The notes beneath the pieces were generated by a model that had not been told where the DNA came from, made no database searches, and saw nothing but the letters and a program-made list of their open reading frames with translations. From Escherichia virus TH16, in sequence record MT446393.1: a stretch of DNA of 40,612 nt; one strand, written 5' to 3'. Within the stretch, counting starts at the first letter, position 1. Every line of letters begins with the position of its first letter. Of this stretch, positions 7,196 to 40,612 are shown piece by piece. A program made the translations under genes and the position numbers.

Positions 7196-8962
7196 CTAGT
7201 GGAGCGTAACGTATGACCCTAGTCCAAGCTCGTCGTCCGTATCGTTAGTTACCCGGACCCCATTGTCCCAGAACTCAGTGTGGATGGACTCGAAGCCTTT
7301 CCGTGGGTTCTCCATCTGTTCCTCCAGCCACTCCTCAGTGACTTCACGTTCGCCTTTGTTGGCATCCTTCGCCATAGACTCAACGAAGAACTGTACACCG
7401 ATAGCCAGCGCATCAAGTCGGTCATCGTGTGCCAAGGCTCCACGCTCACGAGAGATACGGGTCATCTGGTAGAAGAGAGAGTAGATAGGGTTACGAACAC
7501 CGTCCTTATCAGAGGCCGACTGGTAGTCTTGGACGATAGCAGCAGCGTTAACGATAAGTCGGTGAGACCCCATGATAGGCTCCAGAACGTCACAGATGCG
7601 GAGTTCTTTCTGACCCTTACTCTTCACTTCAGTTACAGCAGCAGGATGGATACGGGCCGCTACAGGCTTGAATAACTCAAGGTACATACCATCACCGAAG
7701 TTACCCTCAATGACGTATTCGTTTACCTTCCACTTACGACCAATCTTAGCCAAGGCTTCTAGCGTAGAGTCCTCATAACCACCACGCATACCTCCAACTT
7801 CCATAGCGAAGATGTAGCCGTTGAGCTGATACAGTACCGCATAGCCAGTTTCATCCTTACCACGACCACTAGGGTCAATGACCAGAATCTTCTGGGTGTA
7901 CGAACTGAAGGCAGAACCTACAGTCTGATACGTGTGGTATGAGTCACCCATGAGTCCAACGTTAGGAACGTCCTCACGCTTGTTCTGAGGGTTTGGCAAC
8001 CATTGGTAGACCATTGGGCTGGACGCTGGGTCCAAGTCCGCTACGATAAGGTCACGGAGCTTCAGAGGGTACTTCTCAGCATCACTCAGGTTCGGGTTAA
8101 GCATGAACTGCAGAGCGAAGCCAGCTTTACCATAGGACAGCTCACGTTCCTTCAGGTCCGTATCATCGAATCGTACCTCATCGGTCGGACGCCAGTAGAA
8201 GGGCTCAGGGTCCTCTTCAAGCTCTGCCTGAAGCATCGGTGCCAGACGGTCGCCGTAAGACTGCCAGTCCTTCCTGTCGCGTGGATAACGAGCCGGCCAG
8301 ATAGTAGTGGTATATCCACGGCCTTCAAGCTCACGATACAGGGTCATCTCGTTCTGAGGAGTACCCAGATAGATGATTGTGCCTCCAGGCTTCAGGATAG
8401 CGTCGAACTCTTTAACAAGCTCTGACAGACGGTCTCGTGCAGCCTGAGTCGCTGAGTTGTTAGGAACCTCCACGTCATCTGCAATCAGGATGTCAGCACG
8501 ACTACCAGTCAACTGACCAGTGATACCAACGGACTTAACCGAAGGTGAGTGGTCTGGCTTGGCTGGCCCAACGTCGAAGCTGATAACCGCATCTCGCTGT
8601 CTCTGCTTAGGTTTGAGTTCCTGAAGCTGAGGCATGAGGTCGATGATTCGCTTGATGAAGATGGAGTTAGCATCTGCTCGTTCCTTTGAGGCCGACACAA
8701 TCATGAACTTCAAGTCTGGGTTGTTCCATAGTTTCCAGACCACGAAACCACAGGTCAGAAACGACTTGCCAATACCACGGAACGCCTGAAGGATGAAGCG
8801 GCGATTATCCCCAGCAGCCAGCTTCTTACACATATCTATCTGGCAGCGGGTTGGAACCGGAAGGCTAAGAGCTTTCCAGAGAACGAAGATGAAGAACACG
8901 AAGTCGTCCCTCATCCTTTGGGTCATTTCTGCCTGTCTTTCAGCGGGTGTTTTCTTAGACAT
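7196..8962 (-). CDS. gp19: Terminase large subunit / DNA maturase B (588 aa)
   Basis: Length and sequence similar to T7 gp19; ATG start and TAG stop checked. Confidence 0.95.
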
Positions 8963-9392
8963 ATAGTCCCTCCAACATTAGGTCCCGGACAGCGATAGCC
9001 TCCTCTAAAGTGGGACGTGTTGTGCGCATATAGGCATTCCCGCGTTTAACCTGAATCCTATAACCATTCTGGTGATGGGTAACGCACTTCACTCCCGTCT
9101 TAGAGTCATAATGGCTACCAGTGTTCCAAGTGTTCTCAGCAGCAGTAACGAGCCGTAAGTTACTTAAGGTGTTATTGCTAGGGTTCCTGTCGATGTGGTC
9201 TATTTGCATACCATGTGGTATAGGACCATTGGTTAGTTCCCATATCACACGATGCGCCCGCTTACTGCCTAGACTTCGTGTCTGTACTATCCAATATCCC
9301 ATCAGACTTAATGTCCCCACAGGCTTTCCAGTCCTAACGGAGCCCAGACCGGATGGACTAGCCGGGTCCACTTTGTAGTAATCACTTAACAC
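8955..9392 (-). CDS. HNH homing endonuclease with a C-terminal AP2-like domain (145 aa)
   Basis: HRVIWEL...[20 protein letters not shown]...EN HNH motif; GTG start with AAGGAGG RBS; paralog of 38895..39377. Confidence 0.8.
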
Positions 9393-9819
9393 CTTGGAGC
9401 CTCCTTATTGTGTCCTGAAGCGCCTTCTCCTTAAGGTCTGCCTCCTGAGTTATTCGGATAATACTTTTAGAAGTTTCTGGGTGTAGTTCGACTCTACCAT
9501 TAGGGAAGCATCTACTGACATCTGACTCGATGAGACCTGAGGTGTTGACTCGGACGCGCAGCCGCTTGTTATCGCGGTTAAGGTCAGCAATAATCCTATC
9601 AGTAGAGCCTTCCAGCGCGGACATCTTGTCTTGCCACTCGGCTGACACTTTGTCGAGTTCACCTTGGACAGCAGCCCGTTGATTCTCTCGTGCCTCAAGT
9701 TTCGTGATGTACTCATTGTTTACCTTCGCCTCCCACTTATTGTCTGCCACCCAGTAGCCTGAACAGAACAGGAGTCCTGCCACCAGCCAAGGTACGCATC
9801 TACGTAAAAGTTCGAGCAT
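9382..9819 (-). CDS. gp18.5: Rz-like i-spanin (145 aa)
   Basis: N-terminal transmembrane segment then a charged coiled-coil-like region; position after the small terminase. Confidence 0.7.
   Translation of the reverse strand: MLELLRRCVPWLVAGLLFCSGYWVADNKWEAKVNNEYITKLEARENQRAAVQGELDKVSAEWQDKMSALEGSTDRIIADLNRDNKRLRVRVNTSGLIESDVSRCFPNGRVELHPETSKSIIRITQEADLKEKALQDTIRRLQGVK
9450..9716 (-). CDS. gp18.7: Candidate Rz1-like o-spanin embedded in the +1 frame of Rz
   Basis: Embedded ORF with hydrophobic stretch then ...AITSGC lipobox-like cysteine; start uncertain because the n-region from the first ATG is unusually long. Confidence 0.35.
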   Translation of the reverse strand: MSTSRNLRHERINGLLSKVNSTKCQPSGKTRCPRWKALLIGLLLTLTAITSGCASESTPQVSSSQMSVDASLMVESNYTQKLLKVLSE

Positions 9820-30550: not shown

Positions 30551-30831
30551 TGCTTGAACCCCACGCTGATATTAGAGATGGTGGCACCGTCTTCCGGCAG
30601 CTCATCTTTCAGCTTGGACGCCAGCACAGACTTCAGGTGCAGCTCAATGGCTGCTTCTACCCCGTGCTCTACGGCAGTCTCTACCAGCTTACGTGTCAGC
30701 CCATCCTGCTTCTCTCCAGCGATGTAACCCTTTGTCATCTCAACCAACTCCTGAGAGTAATACTCTACCTCATCTACCGTAAAGACAATCTTCAGGTCGA
30801 ACTTACAGGTCAGGCGTTTTGTCATAGCCAT
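30547..30831 (-). CDS. gp5.5: gp5.5-like protein (94 aa from the ATG)
   Basis: MAMTK start as in T7 gp5.5; AAGGAG RBS; track ORF begins upstream at 30888. Confidence 0.7.
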   Translation of the reverse strand: MAMTKRLTCKFDLKIVFTVDEVEYYSQELVEMTKGYIAGEKQDGLTRKLVETAVEHGVEAAIELHLKSVLASKLKDELPEDGATISNISVGFKQ

Positions 30832-31144
30832 TAGCTTTCTCCTTCTTAATAAGTTTGCGCTCACGGTTCGTCTTGATGACGTGATCACGCTTTGGAATAC
30901 ACTGTAGGTGTTCTACGTTACAGCACCCACGATTCAAACACAAATGGTCTATCTCATAGCCATCTGGTATAGGCCCACGCTTCTGTTCCCACACCCATCT
31001 GTGAAACATAAACGCCTTGCGTCCAGGCTTACGGGCAGAGCCTACCGTGTACCGAAAGTATCCATCATGGTTTCTACGATGTGATACACAGACGATACAT
31101 CCAGTAGGCATCTTATGGAAGCGTAAGGTTGCTACACCTCCCAT
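30803..31144 (-). CDS. HNH endonuclease (113 aa) directly after the DNA polymerase gene
   Basis: Cys-rich HNH core (CIVC ... IDHLCLNRGCCNVEHL ... RDH); AAGGAG RBS. Confidence 0.8.
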   Translation of the reverse strand: MGGVATLRFHKMPTGCIVCVSHRRNHDGYFRYTVGSARKPGRKAFMFHRWVWEQKRGPIPDGYEIDHLCLNRGCCNVEHLQCIPKRDHVIKTNRERKLIKKEKANGYDKTPDL

Positions 31145-31153
31145 CTTATCTCC

Positions 31154-33325
31154 TTAGTGACATTCGCGCCACGTAGGTCCTATCTTCCCCTCGGTGTCAA
31201 GCACACACTTGAACTGGTAGAACTCTCCAACCTCTCGCATTGTGGACTGCGCCACTCTAACGATGTCCTCGGCTATTTCCATAGTCCTTGCTGCAACCTG
31301 AACTTCGTCATGGACAAAAGCCATAATCGCAAAGTCACCATCCCAGCCATGCACGTAGCCTTTAGCTTCTAGGTTCCTCTCAAGCCAAGTGAACCACGTT
31401 TTACAGACTACCGCACCATCACCTTGAAGTAATGCGTTTAGTGCTGAGTGTGGAGACCGTATGTGGATACGGCGACCGTCAAGTCCACGCAACCAACGGC
31501 GTTTCCACTTAACGATGTTCTCTCCGTCCACCCACTTAGAGTCTGATATTAACGTATTACTAACAGCTTCCCTGAGGTCTTTGATGGCTGGTGTACCCTC
31601 AATGAATTTCTTCATGAGAGCTGAACCTTCCTTCTTACCGCCACCGACTATCAGTCCAATCTTAGCGGCCCCTGCACCATACAGGAACGCATAGATGAAC
31701 GTCTTAGCGTTGTTACGGAAAGCATCATGGTCGTGGTTCGACTTATCGCGTGGGACGTTAGGTGCTAACCCAGCGTTTACTGCGTTGGCCCAGTGGATGT
31801 CACCTTCGACCACAGTCTTCGCATAGGCACCACCGTCAAACGGAGCCGCTCGGTTCCCCAGACAACGAAGCTCAAGACCTGAGGCATCCACACCTACTTG
31901 AATCCAAGGGTCTGGCTTACCGTCATTCTTGTTCCAAGCTGCACCGAAAGCACCACGGCAAGTCTCACCATATGGAGCACCGTTAGCCGGGACTTGAGCC
32001 ATGTTTGGTGAATTATGAGTCGCACGTCCGGTTACTGCCCCACATGGGTTGATTGAACCGTGCATACGTCCGTCTGGACCTACAAGTTTCAACCATGCGT
32101 TCTTACCTTCAGCCGCCTGACCGATGCGCTTCTGGACTACCAGGTACTCACGGACCAGCTCTACGCAAGCCTGAGCCTCTGCGTCTGGCAACTTAACGTG
32201 TTCTAACGTCTCGTCATCGACTACAGGTTTACCGGTGTCAGTGAAGTCCACAGGCTCCCAACCACGCTCCATCAGGACTTTCGCTAAGTGGTCTCCGCTT
32301 CCCGGATTAAACTCAACGTAAGTGATAGGTGTGAACGGTGCTCCATCCATCGTGTCTCGTGAGTCGAACTCGCAAGGTTCAAGACCTAAGCGTTGAGCTT
32401 TGTTCTTCGGCTTCTTGAATACTGACCCGACCTTAGGATACACGACTCGTGGATACTTCGGAAGGTCCTTGCCTGTCCGTGGATGTCTGAAGAACTCCTT
32501 GCCTCCCTTTGGTGCGTACCAGCTACCGAAAGTCGAACGCAGCTTGTCCAGCAACTCTGCACGTTTGACGGTGAGTTCACGATATAAGCCTTCGACCATC
32601 TCGGTGTTCATCGGATAGCCGTTACGTTCCATCTTCGCACAGGTCCACGCAGCATCATGTTCCAGACGCAACGCATAAATCTGGTCGAAAGCGAACTGTT
32701 CAGACTGGAAGTAATACTTGTCAGTCAGGAACTTCTTGAACAACGCCAGTGTGACCACAACGTCTTGAACGTTATAGTCCAGCATCTCCTGAGACGGGAA
32801 CAACCATTCGTCACCCGACTTATATTCGATACCTTCCGCCTTGCACTTGGCAACGTAATCGTGTTTGTACTCACCTTTCATCTCACCGAGACGATAACCC
32901 CAAGCCTCAAGAGACTGACGTCCCATCATCTGAGGTGGCAGACGACCAGCTTTCACTGCGCCCATGTCTGAGAACTTAATGTTTGGATACATCAAGCGGC
33001 CCAGCACCAAGGTATCAATCATCTTGTGTTTCGGGAAGTTAAAACGTTTCCCAAAGTACATACGCTTCAGCTTGTCTATAGCCGGGACGTCATAGTTGAT
33101 ACCATTATGGAAGACAAGCATACCATCCGGTGATGCGGCAATCTCTTCCACCTTCTGCACATACTCTTTGAAGCCACCGACGATACCGACCATCGGAGCT
33201 ACCCCATACTTAAGGGTCTCATTCGACTCGGCGTTAATCAGGACCCCACAGTGAAACTGGGAGACTGTATCAAGGAGACCGTTGGTCTCGATGTCAGAAC
33301 CCCAGATACTATTAAGGTCAAACAT
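31154..33325 (-). CDS. gp5: DNA polymerase, family A (about 723 aa from the ATG)
   Basis: Similarity to T7 gp5 throughout (DIETNGLL, VFHNG.KYDVPA, KTFIYAFLYGAG, C-terminal GPTWRECH); GGAGGA RBS before the ATG at 33325. Confidence 0.95.
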   Translation of the reverse strand: MFDLNSIWGSDIETNGLLDTVSQFHCGVLINAESNETLKYGVAPMVGIVGGFKEYVQKVEEIAASPDGMLVFHNGINYDVPAIDKLKRMYFGKRFNFPKHKMIDTLVLGRLMYPNIKFSDMGAVKAGRLPPQMMGRQSLEAWGYRLGEMKGEYKHDYVAKCKAEGIEYKSGDEWLFPSQEMLDYNVQDVVVTLALFKKFLTDKYYFQSEQFAFDQIYALRLEHDAAWTCAKMERNGYPMNTEMVEGLYRELTVKRAELLDKLRSTFGSWYAPKGGKEFFRHPRTGKDLPKYPRVVYPKVGSVFKKPKNKAQRLGLEPCEFDSRDTMDGAPFTPITYVEFNPGSGDHLAKVLMERGWEPVDFTDTGKPVVDDETLEHVKLPDAEAQACVELVREYLVVQKRIGQAAEGKNAWLKLVGPDGRMHGSINPCGAVTGRATHNSPNMAQVPANGAPYGETCRGAFGAAWNKNDGKPDPWIQVGVDASGLELRCLGNRAAPFDGGAYAKTVVEGDIHWANAVNAGLAPNVPRDKSNHDHDAFRNNAKTFIYAFLYGAGAAKIGLIVGGGKKEGSALMKKFIEGTPAIKDLREAVSNTLISDSKWVDGENIVKWKRRWLRGLDGRRIHIRSPHSALNALLQGDGAVVCKTWFTWLERNLEAKGYVHGWDGDFAIMAFVHDEVQVAARTMEIAEDIVRVAQSTMREVGEFYQFKCVLDTEGKIGPTWRECH

Positions 33326-33348
33326 GGTTAATCCTCCGTTTAGTCTAA

Positions 33349-33398
33349 TCATAAAGGCCACTCGCTGTGAATGACCTTGAGTCTAGACCTAGAAGTCT
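33349..33398 (-). promoter_or_regulatory. Conserved hairpin element, candidate RNase III site (R4.7-like position upstream of the polymerase gene)
   Basis: Same conserved block as 9879..9926. Confidence 0.35.
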
Positions 33399-38794: not shown

Positions 38795-38817
38795 TTGTCC
38801 TATAGTGATAGCTTAGG
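38795..38817 (-). promoter_or_regulatory. Phage RNAP promoter (phi1.5/1.6-like)
   Basis: Minus-strand CCTAAGCTATCACTATAGGACAA. Confidence 0.65.
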
Positions 38818-38894
38818 GTCAGGATGGTGTCCAAGACGATAGCTTGCTATAACAAGCAAAGAAACCCAGCAGTCCGAAGACCACTGGGTTGACA

Positions 38895-39377
38895 TTATAA
38901 TGAATCTCTTAAGGCTACTGCCTCGGCTATGGTCTTGGCATAACGGACCACACGTTCTCCATTAGCAACCTTCTTGATGCAGTATAGCTCTCGGCCTTTC
39001 ACTTTGGAGATGTGACGCTCTCCCGTGGCGTTGGTTGACATCTGGCCTTTGTTCTGGTTGTTCTCTGAGTGAGTCACCAGACGCAGGTTTGAAAGCCTGT
39101 TGTTGGAAGGGTTCCTGTCAATGTGGTCAATCTCCATACCATCTGGTATTTGGCCATATGCAAGTTCCCATATTACCCGATGTACCTGTAGGTGTTTGCG
39201 TCCCCACGGTGTCCTTACGTTTATTGTCCAATAGCCAGAAGTCTTCTTACTACCGACCCTTCTCCCAGAGTTAAGTGCCAGCCCTGAGGCCGACCTTTCA
39301 TCAACCTTAAATCTTGACTGTAGGATTGTCCTCAGTCCCTCGCCATTGGTAGAATGACGGGTGTCGCAGACTTCCAT
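38895..39377 (-). CDS. HNH homing endonuclease with AP2-like domain (about 160 aa from the ATG); overlaps the 3' end of the ligase gene
   Basis: [41 protein letters not shown]; ATG at 39377 with GGAGGAG RBS (track start 39512 is TTG). Confidence 0.8.
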   Translation of the reverse strand: MEVCDTRHSTNGEGLRTILQSRFKVDERSASGLALNSGRRVGSKKTSGYWTINVRTPWGRKHLQVHRVIWELAYGQIPDGMEIDHIDRNPSNNRLSNLRLVTHSENNQNKGQMSTNATGERHISKVKGRELYCIKKVANGERVVRYAKTIAEAVALRDSL

Positions 39378-40338
39378 CTGGTGTCTCCTCCATGTAGGTG
39401 ATTTGACAAGCCCACCCATTGTAGTAATCAGGGTCTGACTTAACGTTATCTGTGAACTCGGACATAAGGGCGCGACTAATGTTAGTTGCGGAGACCTCCA
39501 TCCCGTTCTCAAGCATCACGTCAAATCCGATGACCATGCCCTCGTTGGCTAGGCCATCCGTACCCCACACAGGGCGCACAACATGACCGTCTGCCTCTTC
39601 GCTCGGCTTCATCTTCCACATGCCAGACTTCTTGCCACGCTTCCAGCGTCCAAGAGGGTCTTTAACTACCAGACCTTCTTGCCCATCTGCGCGCTTCTCT
39701 TCGTACAAATCCTGAAGAGACTCAAGGTCGTACACTGTATGACTCTCAGATAATACCCAGTCGATTTCCGGGAAGTATTTCTGGAGGAGAGGGACGATAG
39801 CTTCGGCCTTCAGGCGAGTGACGCTATGGATAGGGCCTTCGGCTTTCGGGTCGGTGATGACGTTAAGGTCCACGATACCGTAGACGACCACCTTGATATG
39901 GGCTCGGTCCAGCCTGAACTGAGTAGTCTTGGACTTGAGGTCCCAATCGCCATCGTGGAAGTCGTAGTTTTTAGACTTGACATACTTCGTGCGAATGAGA
40001 CCTGAAGACGTATTGAAGTCCACTCCTTTTACCATGACCTCGCCATCAATCATCAGGCCAGTGCCTTCGTATCCAGCCTGCTTCAGGAACCACAGCCAGT
40101 CGCTAGACTCGGTCTCCCAGAGGTCCTCTCGAGAAGTGTCCAGCCAGCTCAGGGCCGGAAGTGACTTAGACTCACGGCTCAACCATTGGGTCTCACCAGT
40201 AGGGAAGACCGGGAGGTTCAACCGGACACCATCGTACTTCACTTCAGCTTCCAGCGACCCAGCAGCTTCCAGAGCCTTCTTAACGCCAGACTCAGAGTAA
40301 TCTACAGCGCGGTGCGGGTTAGTTTTAATAGTTGTCAT
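39307..40338 (-). CDS. gp1.3: ATP-dependent DNA ligase (343 aa from the ATG); its 5' part is duplicated at 1..394
   Basis: KYDGVR adenylation motif and strong similarity to T7 ligase (MKPSEEADG, DGSLRHPSF..RGTEDNP); GGAG RBS before the ATG at 40338. Confidence 0.95.
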   Translation of the reverse strand: MTTIKTNPHRAVDYSESGVKKALEAAGSLEAEVKYDGVRLNLPVFPTGETQWLSRESKSLPALSWLDTSREDLWETESSDWLWFLKQAGYEGTGLMIDGEVMVKGVDFNTSSGLIRTKYVKSKNYDFHDGDWDLKSKTTQFRLDRAHIKVVVYGIVDLNVITDPKAEGPIHSVTRLKAEAIVPLLQKYFPEIDWVLSESHTVYDLESLQDLYEEKRADGQEGLVVKDPLGRWKRGKKSGMWKMKPSEEADGHVVRPVWGTDGLANEGMVIGFDVMLENGMEVSATNISRALMSEFTDNVKSDPDYYNGWACQITYMEETPDGSLRHPSFYQWRGTEDNPTVKI

Positions 40339-40612
40339 TGTGTTATCTCCATGTGTCGAGTTGGTTAGCGAGACAGTTAAGGAAGCCTGTGGCAGTGTTG
40401 TACAGTACGTCTTCATCGCGGTGTGCGAAGATCTTAAGCGCGAAGATGTTACCAGCTCGGTCCTCGACTTGAAGTCTCATGAACTCTTTCCGAAGATGCG
40501 CCTCGTACCAGTCCTGCTGTATCACGCAGAAGTCTAACTGATATAGTCGGTTACACGCTGCTTTGAAAGCGTTTAGGTTGCCACTGTAAAGTCTGCCCAT
40601 AGCGTTATGCTC

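Follow-up and report, generated by a model that had tools for sequence, protein, structure and literature searches.

A probable HNH_3 homing endonuclease gene with a likely start inside the DNA ligase gene of a Kayfunavirus genome

A reading frame that overlaps the 3' end of a conserved DNA ligase gene in a small lytic phage raises the questions of whether it is a gene at all, how it came to lie there, and where its translation begins. The window analyzed here is the whole stretch of 40,612 nt from Escherichia virus TH16 (MT446393.1). It is the genome of a K1F-like relative of T7 (genus Kayfunavirus), and its genes lie on the minus strand. By megablast, the ligase and terminase regions matched more than 200 Autographiviridae/Studiervirinae records, mostly Kayfunavirus. 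The phage RNA polymerase promoter core TATCACTATAGGA occurs 11 times in the window against 0.8 copies expected by chance, with one copy ahead of gene 1.6 (38798..38810, minus strand). The late region on the terminase side is approximately 97% identical to Kayfunavirus PDP21P1, AN17P1, and vB_EcoP-101118UKE1, whereas the best GenBank phage identity of the ligase region is only 83 to 89% (83.7% to PDP21P1); the early and late modules of the window genome thus form a mosaic. The ligase gene (39307..40416, minus strand) is the homologue of T7 gene 1.3 and encodes an ATP-dependent enzyme (Pfam DNA_ligase_A_M and DNA_ligase_C). Downstream of it lies the frame in question (38895..39377, minus strand; 160 aa from ATG 39377), which we consider to be probably a free-standing homing endonuclease gene of the I-HmuI/HNH_3 kind, the type A allele of the gene-1.45 slot, translated from an ATG within ligase.

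The frame at 38895..39377 is a real, intact gene under strong purifying selection. Outside the overlap with ligase, dN/dS between the window and phage RDN8.1 is 0.074 (dS 0.69; 85.6% nucleotide identity), and pairs of the type B allele described below give 0.075 to 0.12. The product scores 82 bits (2.3e-23) against Pfam HNH_3 (PF13392; curated cutoff of 24.8 bits) and matches PHROG 99 at 1.9e-39. By sequence, its closest solved relative is I-HmuI (1U3E; E 3.7e-6), and the same structure is the top PDB match of the modeled protein in Foldseek (1u3e; E 5.7e-4, probability 1.00). In an alignment of 52 homologous sequences, D84, H85, and N97 are invariant and N106 and N109 nearly so; all are present in the window protein. 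The AlphaFold model (pLDDT 88.9, with residues 1 to 8 below 50) predicts a beta-beta-alpha-metal nuclease core followed by a short C-terminal beta3-alpha module. Could the frame nevertheless be a decaying, untranslated remnant that lacks a start codon of its own? The window has no start codon past the ligase stop, and relatives carry scars and replacements at this site. Yet the 160-codon frame is intact with every catalytic residue in place, and the low dN/dS holds across the full divergence from RDN8.1, which also lacks a downstream ATG. We regard decay as highly improbable.

In the preliminary description, the product was labeled HNH-AP2. The HNH half of that label is borne out by HNH_3 matches in both window copies; the AP2 half finds only indirect support. 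PF00847 (AP2) is unmatched in either copy: no Pfam match to it was obtained at E ≤ 10 with either full protein or with the isolated C-terminal 56 residues. The C terminus of the model consists of strands at 123 to 125, 132 to 138, and 141 to 147, followed by a helix at 150 to 159. PF00847 is carried by 17 of 54 homologues, in which the same region aligns with the C-terminal strands and helix of the window protein. Foldseek matches to AP2 structures were local and nonsignificant (7et4, E 2.3; 3igm, E 1.8). Judging from the model, the C-terminal module is probably DNA binding and AP2-like, with its identity as an AP2 domain unproven.

How the gene came to lie between ligase and the next feature is seen by comparison with phages that lack it. 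In K1F, the ligase TAA is followed by 11 nt, a hairpin (AACCCAGTGGTCTT..GACTGCTGGGTT), a U-rich tail, and then the gene 1.6 promoter. Aligned to K1F, the window has an additional ∼410 nt, which fall exactly between the ligase stop and this hairpin. The inserted cassette extends approximately from 38897 to 39311 (minus strand), as estimated from the K1F alignment and the junctions of 31 loci. Its left edge falls between AAGA and TTTAAGGTTGAT, and its right edge falls between ...TTCATTATAA and TGTCAACCC. The left edge is pinned by Salmonella phage PRF-SP2, in which the ligase flank is of the empty type right up to the junction of AAGA with TTTAAGGTTGAT. An uninterrupted empty-site junction is absent anywhere in the window. 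The hairpin of the window (38863..38890, minus strand) was recovered in a terminator scan as an intrinsic terminator with a 12-bp stem, a UUCG loop, and a U tail (−19.2 kcal/mol, z −4.3); it starts 4 nt past the HNH stop codon and is kept in nearly all relatives. We take it to be the equivalent of the T7 early terminator TE, which lies just after gene 1.3. Because a promoter-core scan of the window found no phage promoter between ligase and the HNH gene, the latter is the last cistron of the ligase transcript and is cotranscribed with it.

We surveyed this slot in 36 loci including the window, namely, 26 IMG/VR contigs found by ligase-protein search, 9 GenBank phages, and 1 ENA contig, and classified each by how far the hairpin lies from the ligase stop, a distance that takes discrete values. 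The slot is empty (11 nt) in 19 loci (K1F, L007, L010, L012, and 15 others), to which L022 is added at 20 nt. A type A HNH gene (418 nt) is found in the window, in L005 (one amino acid difference), in RDN8.1, and in L036 (98% identical protein); in GenBank, RDN8.1 is the only full-length type A. Nine loci have a type B HNH gene (397 nt), among them PH1061 and CLB_P1, whose record annotates it as gp1.45. Between types A and B, the segment overlapping ligase is 74 to 94% identical and the last 48 nt 82 to 88% identical, versus 42 to 50% over the central 360 nt. In L008 and CR44b, internal deletion has left a 42-nt scar in which the gene's first 14 nt and last ∼25 nt survive. An unrelated small open reading frame (182 nt) is present in L017 and L024; its sequence starts with ATGAGCACGCAACTTTATG..., and its ATG and the TGA of ligase are merged as ATGA. 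Three distant loci (L028 to L030) have no recognizable hairpin. The slot is thus polymorphic among relatives, with discrete boundaries and empty, type A, type B, scar, and replaced states. The preliminary reading of a homing-endonuclease-type insertion therefore holds up: K1F and approximately 20 relatives proceed from TAA to the hairpin within 11 nt, precisely where the window has its additional sequence, and the overlapping arrangement is not one conserved in all relatives.

The replaced state is that of PRF-SP2 (OM867676.1; L034 1440-2420), in which the slot measures 824 nt and an AT-rich gene for a 244-aa DNA methyltransferase-like protein occupies the equivalent of window positions 38895..39311. 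Its product matches PHROG 757 (E 8e-88), with Pfam DNA_methylase at only 0.013. The insert lies within a decayed type A HNH remnant, of which the 5' TTTAAGGTTGAT and the last ∼78 nt survive, with in-frame stop codons. A similar insert is apparently also present in approximately 20 other Salmonella Typhi/Paratyphi Kayfunaviruses. The methyltransferase-like gene looks like anti-restriction cargo captured in a homing endonuclease slot.

The position of the start codon is the most unusual aspect of the gene. The last 23 ligase codons and the stop (39307..39377, minus strand) also encode HNH residues 1 to 24 in the +1 frame. ATG 39377 is preceded, at a distance of 7 nt, by the Shine-Dalgarno sequence GGAGGAG (39385..39391, minus strand), which falls in the ligase codons for M-E-E and is identical across all HNH-carrying loci; both it and the ATG are inside codons for the conserved ligase motif YMEETPDG. 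The family has an N-terminal strand motif, [FY]x[VY]D..S.SGL, which reads MFYVDETSRTGL (MFYVD...) in the homologue P0034 and RFKVDERSASGL in the window, and homologues start at or before the F/Y of [FY]xVD. In the window, this motif straddles the ligase stop: its F-K codons, TTT AAG, contain the ligase TAA, which by necessity places the start of the HNH protein within ligase. All 13 HNH-carrying loci have an ATG or GTG at the ligase position of ATG 39377, followed by an open frame; in a subgroup in which ligase has PSG for PDG, the ATG has become GTG, still a start codon. P0003, a metagenomic type B protein on a short contig, was called from the ligase-internal start.

Against this stands the reading that the overlap is an artifact of ORF calling, in which the nuclease would start past the ligase stop, either at a rare start codon or at the equivalent of the ATG in L036 and PH1061, and residues 1 to 24 would never be made. 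An ATG does follow the ligase stop closely in L036 (codon 28) and in PH1061 (codon 29), so a downstream start is possible in some genomes; gene callers and GenBank records all place the HNH start downstream of the ligase stop; and the first eight residues are those modeled with low confidence. However, no other ATG, GTG, or TTG lies in frame between 39377 and the conserved motif in the window, RDN8.1, or seven of the nine type B loci, and a start at codon 28 would cut off the F-K-V-D strand, which is conserved in the paralog and in distant homologues. We consider the artifact reading unlikely and, from the sequence, ATG 39377 by far the most likely start in the window genome. The 71-nt overlap in another frame that had been noted for this locus is real, given the lack of an alternative start before the motif, the strong ribosome-binding site, and the open frame in every carrier.

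Several properties of the ligase tail bear on how far it is shaped by the nuclease. An ATG at the equivalent position is present in 17 of 23 HNH-less relatives, most of which also have the Shine-Dalgarno sequence, and roughly half of all synonymous recodings of the ligase tail leave the +1 frame open; frame openness alone is therefore weak evidence. Presence of the start codon was rejected as a discriminator of carriers, since 13/13 carriers versus 17/23 noncarriers is not significant. Among carriers, the final 24 ligase codons show no reduction in synonymous divergence (0.41, against 0.42 upstream; ratio 0.97). The N-terminal leader is thus not visibly constrained, a point that also favors the artifact reading. 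The idea that the ligase tail is adapted to encode the N-terminal helix of the family was likewise rejected. On a position-specific matrix (PSSM) built from 49 homologues, the +1-frame peptide actually encoded placed in the top 3.7% of 200,000 synonymous variants of the last 13 ligase codons (6 to 7% among open frames), with a negative absolute score, a result that is suggestive at best. The fold of 39300..39430 is unremarkable (z −1.8), giving no sign of RNA structure masking the Shine-Dalgarno sequence or ATG. Residues ∼1 to 12 are probably a tolerated leader, as far as the model can tell.

Alternatively, ribosomes might shift into the +1 frame at the ligase stop codon (AUU UAA G read as UUU AAG), so that the nuclease is made as a fusion of ligase to ...KVDERSASGL. 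The HNH frame is indeed +1 relative to ligase, the shift would join the two exactly where the homologous region begins, and AAG-ATT-TAA-[GA]G is common to all carriers, versus AAG-AGC-TAA in empty sites. However, re-pairing of tRNA-Ile on UUU would be poor, the sequence has no prfB-like Shine-Dalgarno stimulator at a suitable distance, and the F-K of the protein motif explains conservation of TTT-AAG equally well. Homologues moreover have an N-terminal helix, and the product of the internal start has one too in the model. We know of no precedent and regard this route as extremely unlikely.

A start 71 nt inside ligase has consequences for annotation. In GenBank records EFA-1, phiHAO1-1, and SR04, the slot (∼500 nt) is left unannotated, and in others the gene is annotated in N-terminally truncated form (78 to 126 aa): RDN8.1 (243 nt), CHRF_30111 (234 nt), CLB_P1 (357 nt), and PH1061 (381 nt). 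These missing and truncated annotations are probably due to the position of the real start. Prodigal disallows same-strand overlaps above 60 nt, a setting that would explain them and perhaps also the downstream starts on which the artifact reading draws. Once the internal start is recognized, the complete nuclease with its first beta-strand is given back.

The ligase flank differs between occupied and empty sites. Carriers, scars, and the empty loci L010 and L012 end ligase with ...AATCCTACAGTCAAGATTTAA (TVKI*), the window allele reading ...NPTVKI*, versus ...AACCCGACCATTAAGAGCTAA (TIKS*) in K1F-type empty loci. Between carriers and K1F/L007, synonymous divergence rises from 0.44 in the preceding 100 ligase codons to 0.76 in the final 24, on a small sample of sites; by sequence, this rise would fit either co-conversion or target-site divergence. 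The IMG/VR loci L010 and L012 have an empty slot (TAA CTAAATGTCAACCC) yet carry the ligase tail …ACAGTCAAGATTTAA, ending TVKI*, that otherwise occurs only with an HNH gene or scar. The tie between flank allele and gene is thus not strict, and, should the target lie in this flank, the allele alone could not give immunity. L010 and L012 could represent the ancestral recipient allele or a product of partial conversion. On a larger scale, Kayfunavirus ligases have two C-terminal types, QITYMEETPDGS... and EVLFMERFPDGS..., as compared over the C-terminal 80 aa in L005 to L030. The two are approximately 50% identical over these 80 aa versus 65 to 80% over the whole protein, and all intact HNH carriers seen are of the first type, QITYMEETPDGS.... 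This pattern suggests mosaic exchange within the ligase gene.

A paralogous HNH_3 gene (8955..9392, minus strand; 73.8 bits) lies between the genes for the Rz spanin and the large terminase. It starts with GTG, 7 nt downstream of an AAGGAGG within the Rz 3' end, and it ends 8 nt into the terminase gene, its last codons supplying the terminase ribosome-binding site GGAGGG. We aligned the corresponding site of Ro45lw (L037) and of L038 and L039 to window positions 8950..9400. Ro45lw has a scar of ∼70 nt, consisting of the first 20 and last ∼50 nt, in which the Rz stop region and the start and ribosome-binding site of terminase persist. In an Enterobacter phage, the HNH allele is divergent but has the same last ∼75 nt; K1F has no trace of the element and a different terminase N terminus. 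These states parallel those of the ligase slot. The gene at 8955..9392 is a second, independent element of the same family that likewise starts inside the gene upstream. A third HNH_3 gene, absent from the preliminary description, lies directly downstream of the DNA polymerase gene (31154..33361); it occupies 30803..31144 (minus strand) and encodes a gp5.3-like protein of 113 aa that has a zf-His_Me_endon zinc loop and resembles gp5.3 of T7 and phiYeO3-12.

These nucleases might instead be domesticated parts of the phage life cycle, the terminase-adjacent copy, for instance, acting as a packaging HNH protein like HK97 gp74. In keeping with this, 8955..9392 adjoins the large terminase gene and supplies its ribosome-binding site, and the ligase-adjacent gene is under strong purifying selection. 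However, both genes are absent from K1F, and scars are found in CR44b, L008, and Ro45lw, all being or resembling viable isolates. The proteins also belong to the HNH_3/I-HmuI-like family rather than the short gp74 type, and T7-type packaging uses terminal repeats and needs no HNH protein. We assign domestication a very low probability. An indispensable role for 8955..9392 as terminase partner was rejected outright on its absence from K1F and the scar in Ro45lw.

The two window proteins are 44% identical over 144 aa (E 6e-35). At the DNA level, pairwise blastn gave a sole significant match, far beyond chance (E 1e-14), between 39098..39182 (minus strand) and 9170..9254, with 68 of 85 nt (80%) identical. 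The match encodes the catalytic core and contains the segments of ∼80% identity noted earlier (39110..39183 and 9181..9253), the resemblance between the two genes thus being confirmed. The further proposal that this stretch is a site for intragenomic recombination did not survive: identity is 80%, the longest exact run is 12 nt (39108..39119), and no sign of gene conversion was found. Gene conversion between the paralogs was rejected, since the ligase-adjacent allele is 73 to 79% identical to terminase-site paralogs of other phages and ∼80% to its own, and hence no closer to the copy in its own genome. In addition, crossing over between the copies, which lie ∼30 kb apart in direct orientation, would cost the phage most of its essential genes. 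Synonymous codons match only moderately across the 85-nt core, and the shared stretch reflects conservation of the catalytic core.

Under the reading of a free-standing homing endonuclease, translation would initiate at the out-of-frame ATG 39377, and ribosomes reading ligase would compete with this initiation, giving a low level of nuclease. In a mixed infection with an empty-site relative, the predicted enzyme, by analogy with its family and with T4 precedents, would nick or cut near the junction of ligase and terminator, and recombinational repair off the HNH-carrying genome would copy the gene together with the adjacent ligase 3' allele. More speculatively, the conserved GC-rich terminator hairpin just downstream might serve as an attractive half-site. 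We tentatively entertain, as a possibility short of an even chance, the further idea that the element has no translation signals of its own, is expressed from the Shine-Dalgarno sequence and ATG of ligase, and uses its short termini as homology arms by which alleles or cargo are swapped. These signals would be hard for ligase to lose, both being embedded in the codons of YMEETPDG. The portable arms would be the 5' TTTAAGGTTGA and the 3' ∼48 to 78 nt, and they would allow type A, type B, and even the methyltransferase-like gene of Salmonella Typhi phages to be exchanged into one slot. The same would hold at the Rz/terminase site, where the Rz stop and the ribosome-binding site of terminase are encoded by the ends of the element, which would for that reason survive deletion of the nuclease.

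K1F-type phages are engineered and used therapeutically, and active homing endonucleases can bias marker inheritance, a bias relevant to mixed infections and to recombineering near the ligase and terminase genes. At this locus, the empty site, the two alleles, the scars, and the cargo replacement also form a small natural series that could serve for following how such elements enter, persist in, and are lost from small lytic genomes. The current understanding of homing endonucleases is unchanged by these findings in the ligase slot. HNH homing endonuclease genes are recognized variable mobile elements in T7-like phages (PMC4925675), and the window gene is an allele of a known kind of element in a known variable slot. 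What distinguishes it are the apparently obligatory start within ligase, the systematic misannotation, and the series of slot states.

Compared with known systems, the nearest relatives are the gp1.45 genes of CLB_P1 and PH1061, a name that the CLB_P1 record takes from gp1.45 of Yersinia phage phiYeO3-12; a literature search for "gp1.45" found no paper using the term. These genes share with the window gene the slot, its boundaries, the ligase-internal ATG or GTG with its Shine-Dalgarno sequence, and the last ∼48 nt (82 to 88% identical), but they encode 153 rather than 160 aa and diverge over the central 360 nt. Type B is a distinct allele, probably with a different DNA specificity. I-HmuI of Bacillus phage SPO1 (1U3E) resembles the window protein in its N-terminal beta-hairpins and its beta-beta-alpha-metal core with D-H...N...N (91 columns, rmsd 3.2 Å). 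It differs in being intron encoded and in having a C-terminal helix-turn-helix DNA-binding domain, whereas the window protein comes from a free-standing gene, does without the first NUMOD4-like strand, and terminates in the short beta3-alpha module. Proteins combining HNH and AP2 domains are a described family, and their genes cluster beside essential genes such as terminase (PMC10448857). Members from ICP1 (IPA-HNH) and Xanthomonas phages Xp10 and Xop411 share with the window proteins an N-terminal HNH domain, a small C-terminal domain that is probably DNA binding in the window proteins too, and a location beside essential genes (PMC10448857, PMC2248197), but the window proteins have no Pfam AP2 score and a shorter C-terminal module that stops right after the helix. 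The free-standing homing endonucleases of T4-like phages (Seg and MobE) are intergenic and spread by cleaving the endonuclease-less allele, with co-conversion of the flanks (PMC2988022, PMC2790892). Like them, the window gene adjoins a conserved gene, is patchily present, and has a flank allele associated with it, though not strictly; the Seg proteins, unlike it, are GIY-YIG enzymes from a different phage lineage. To our knowledge, no Seg or MobE gene relies on a start codon placed 71 nt within the gene before it, as the window gene probably does.
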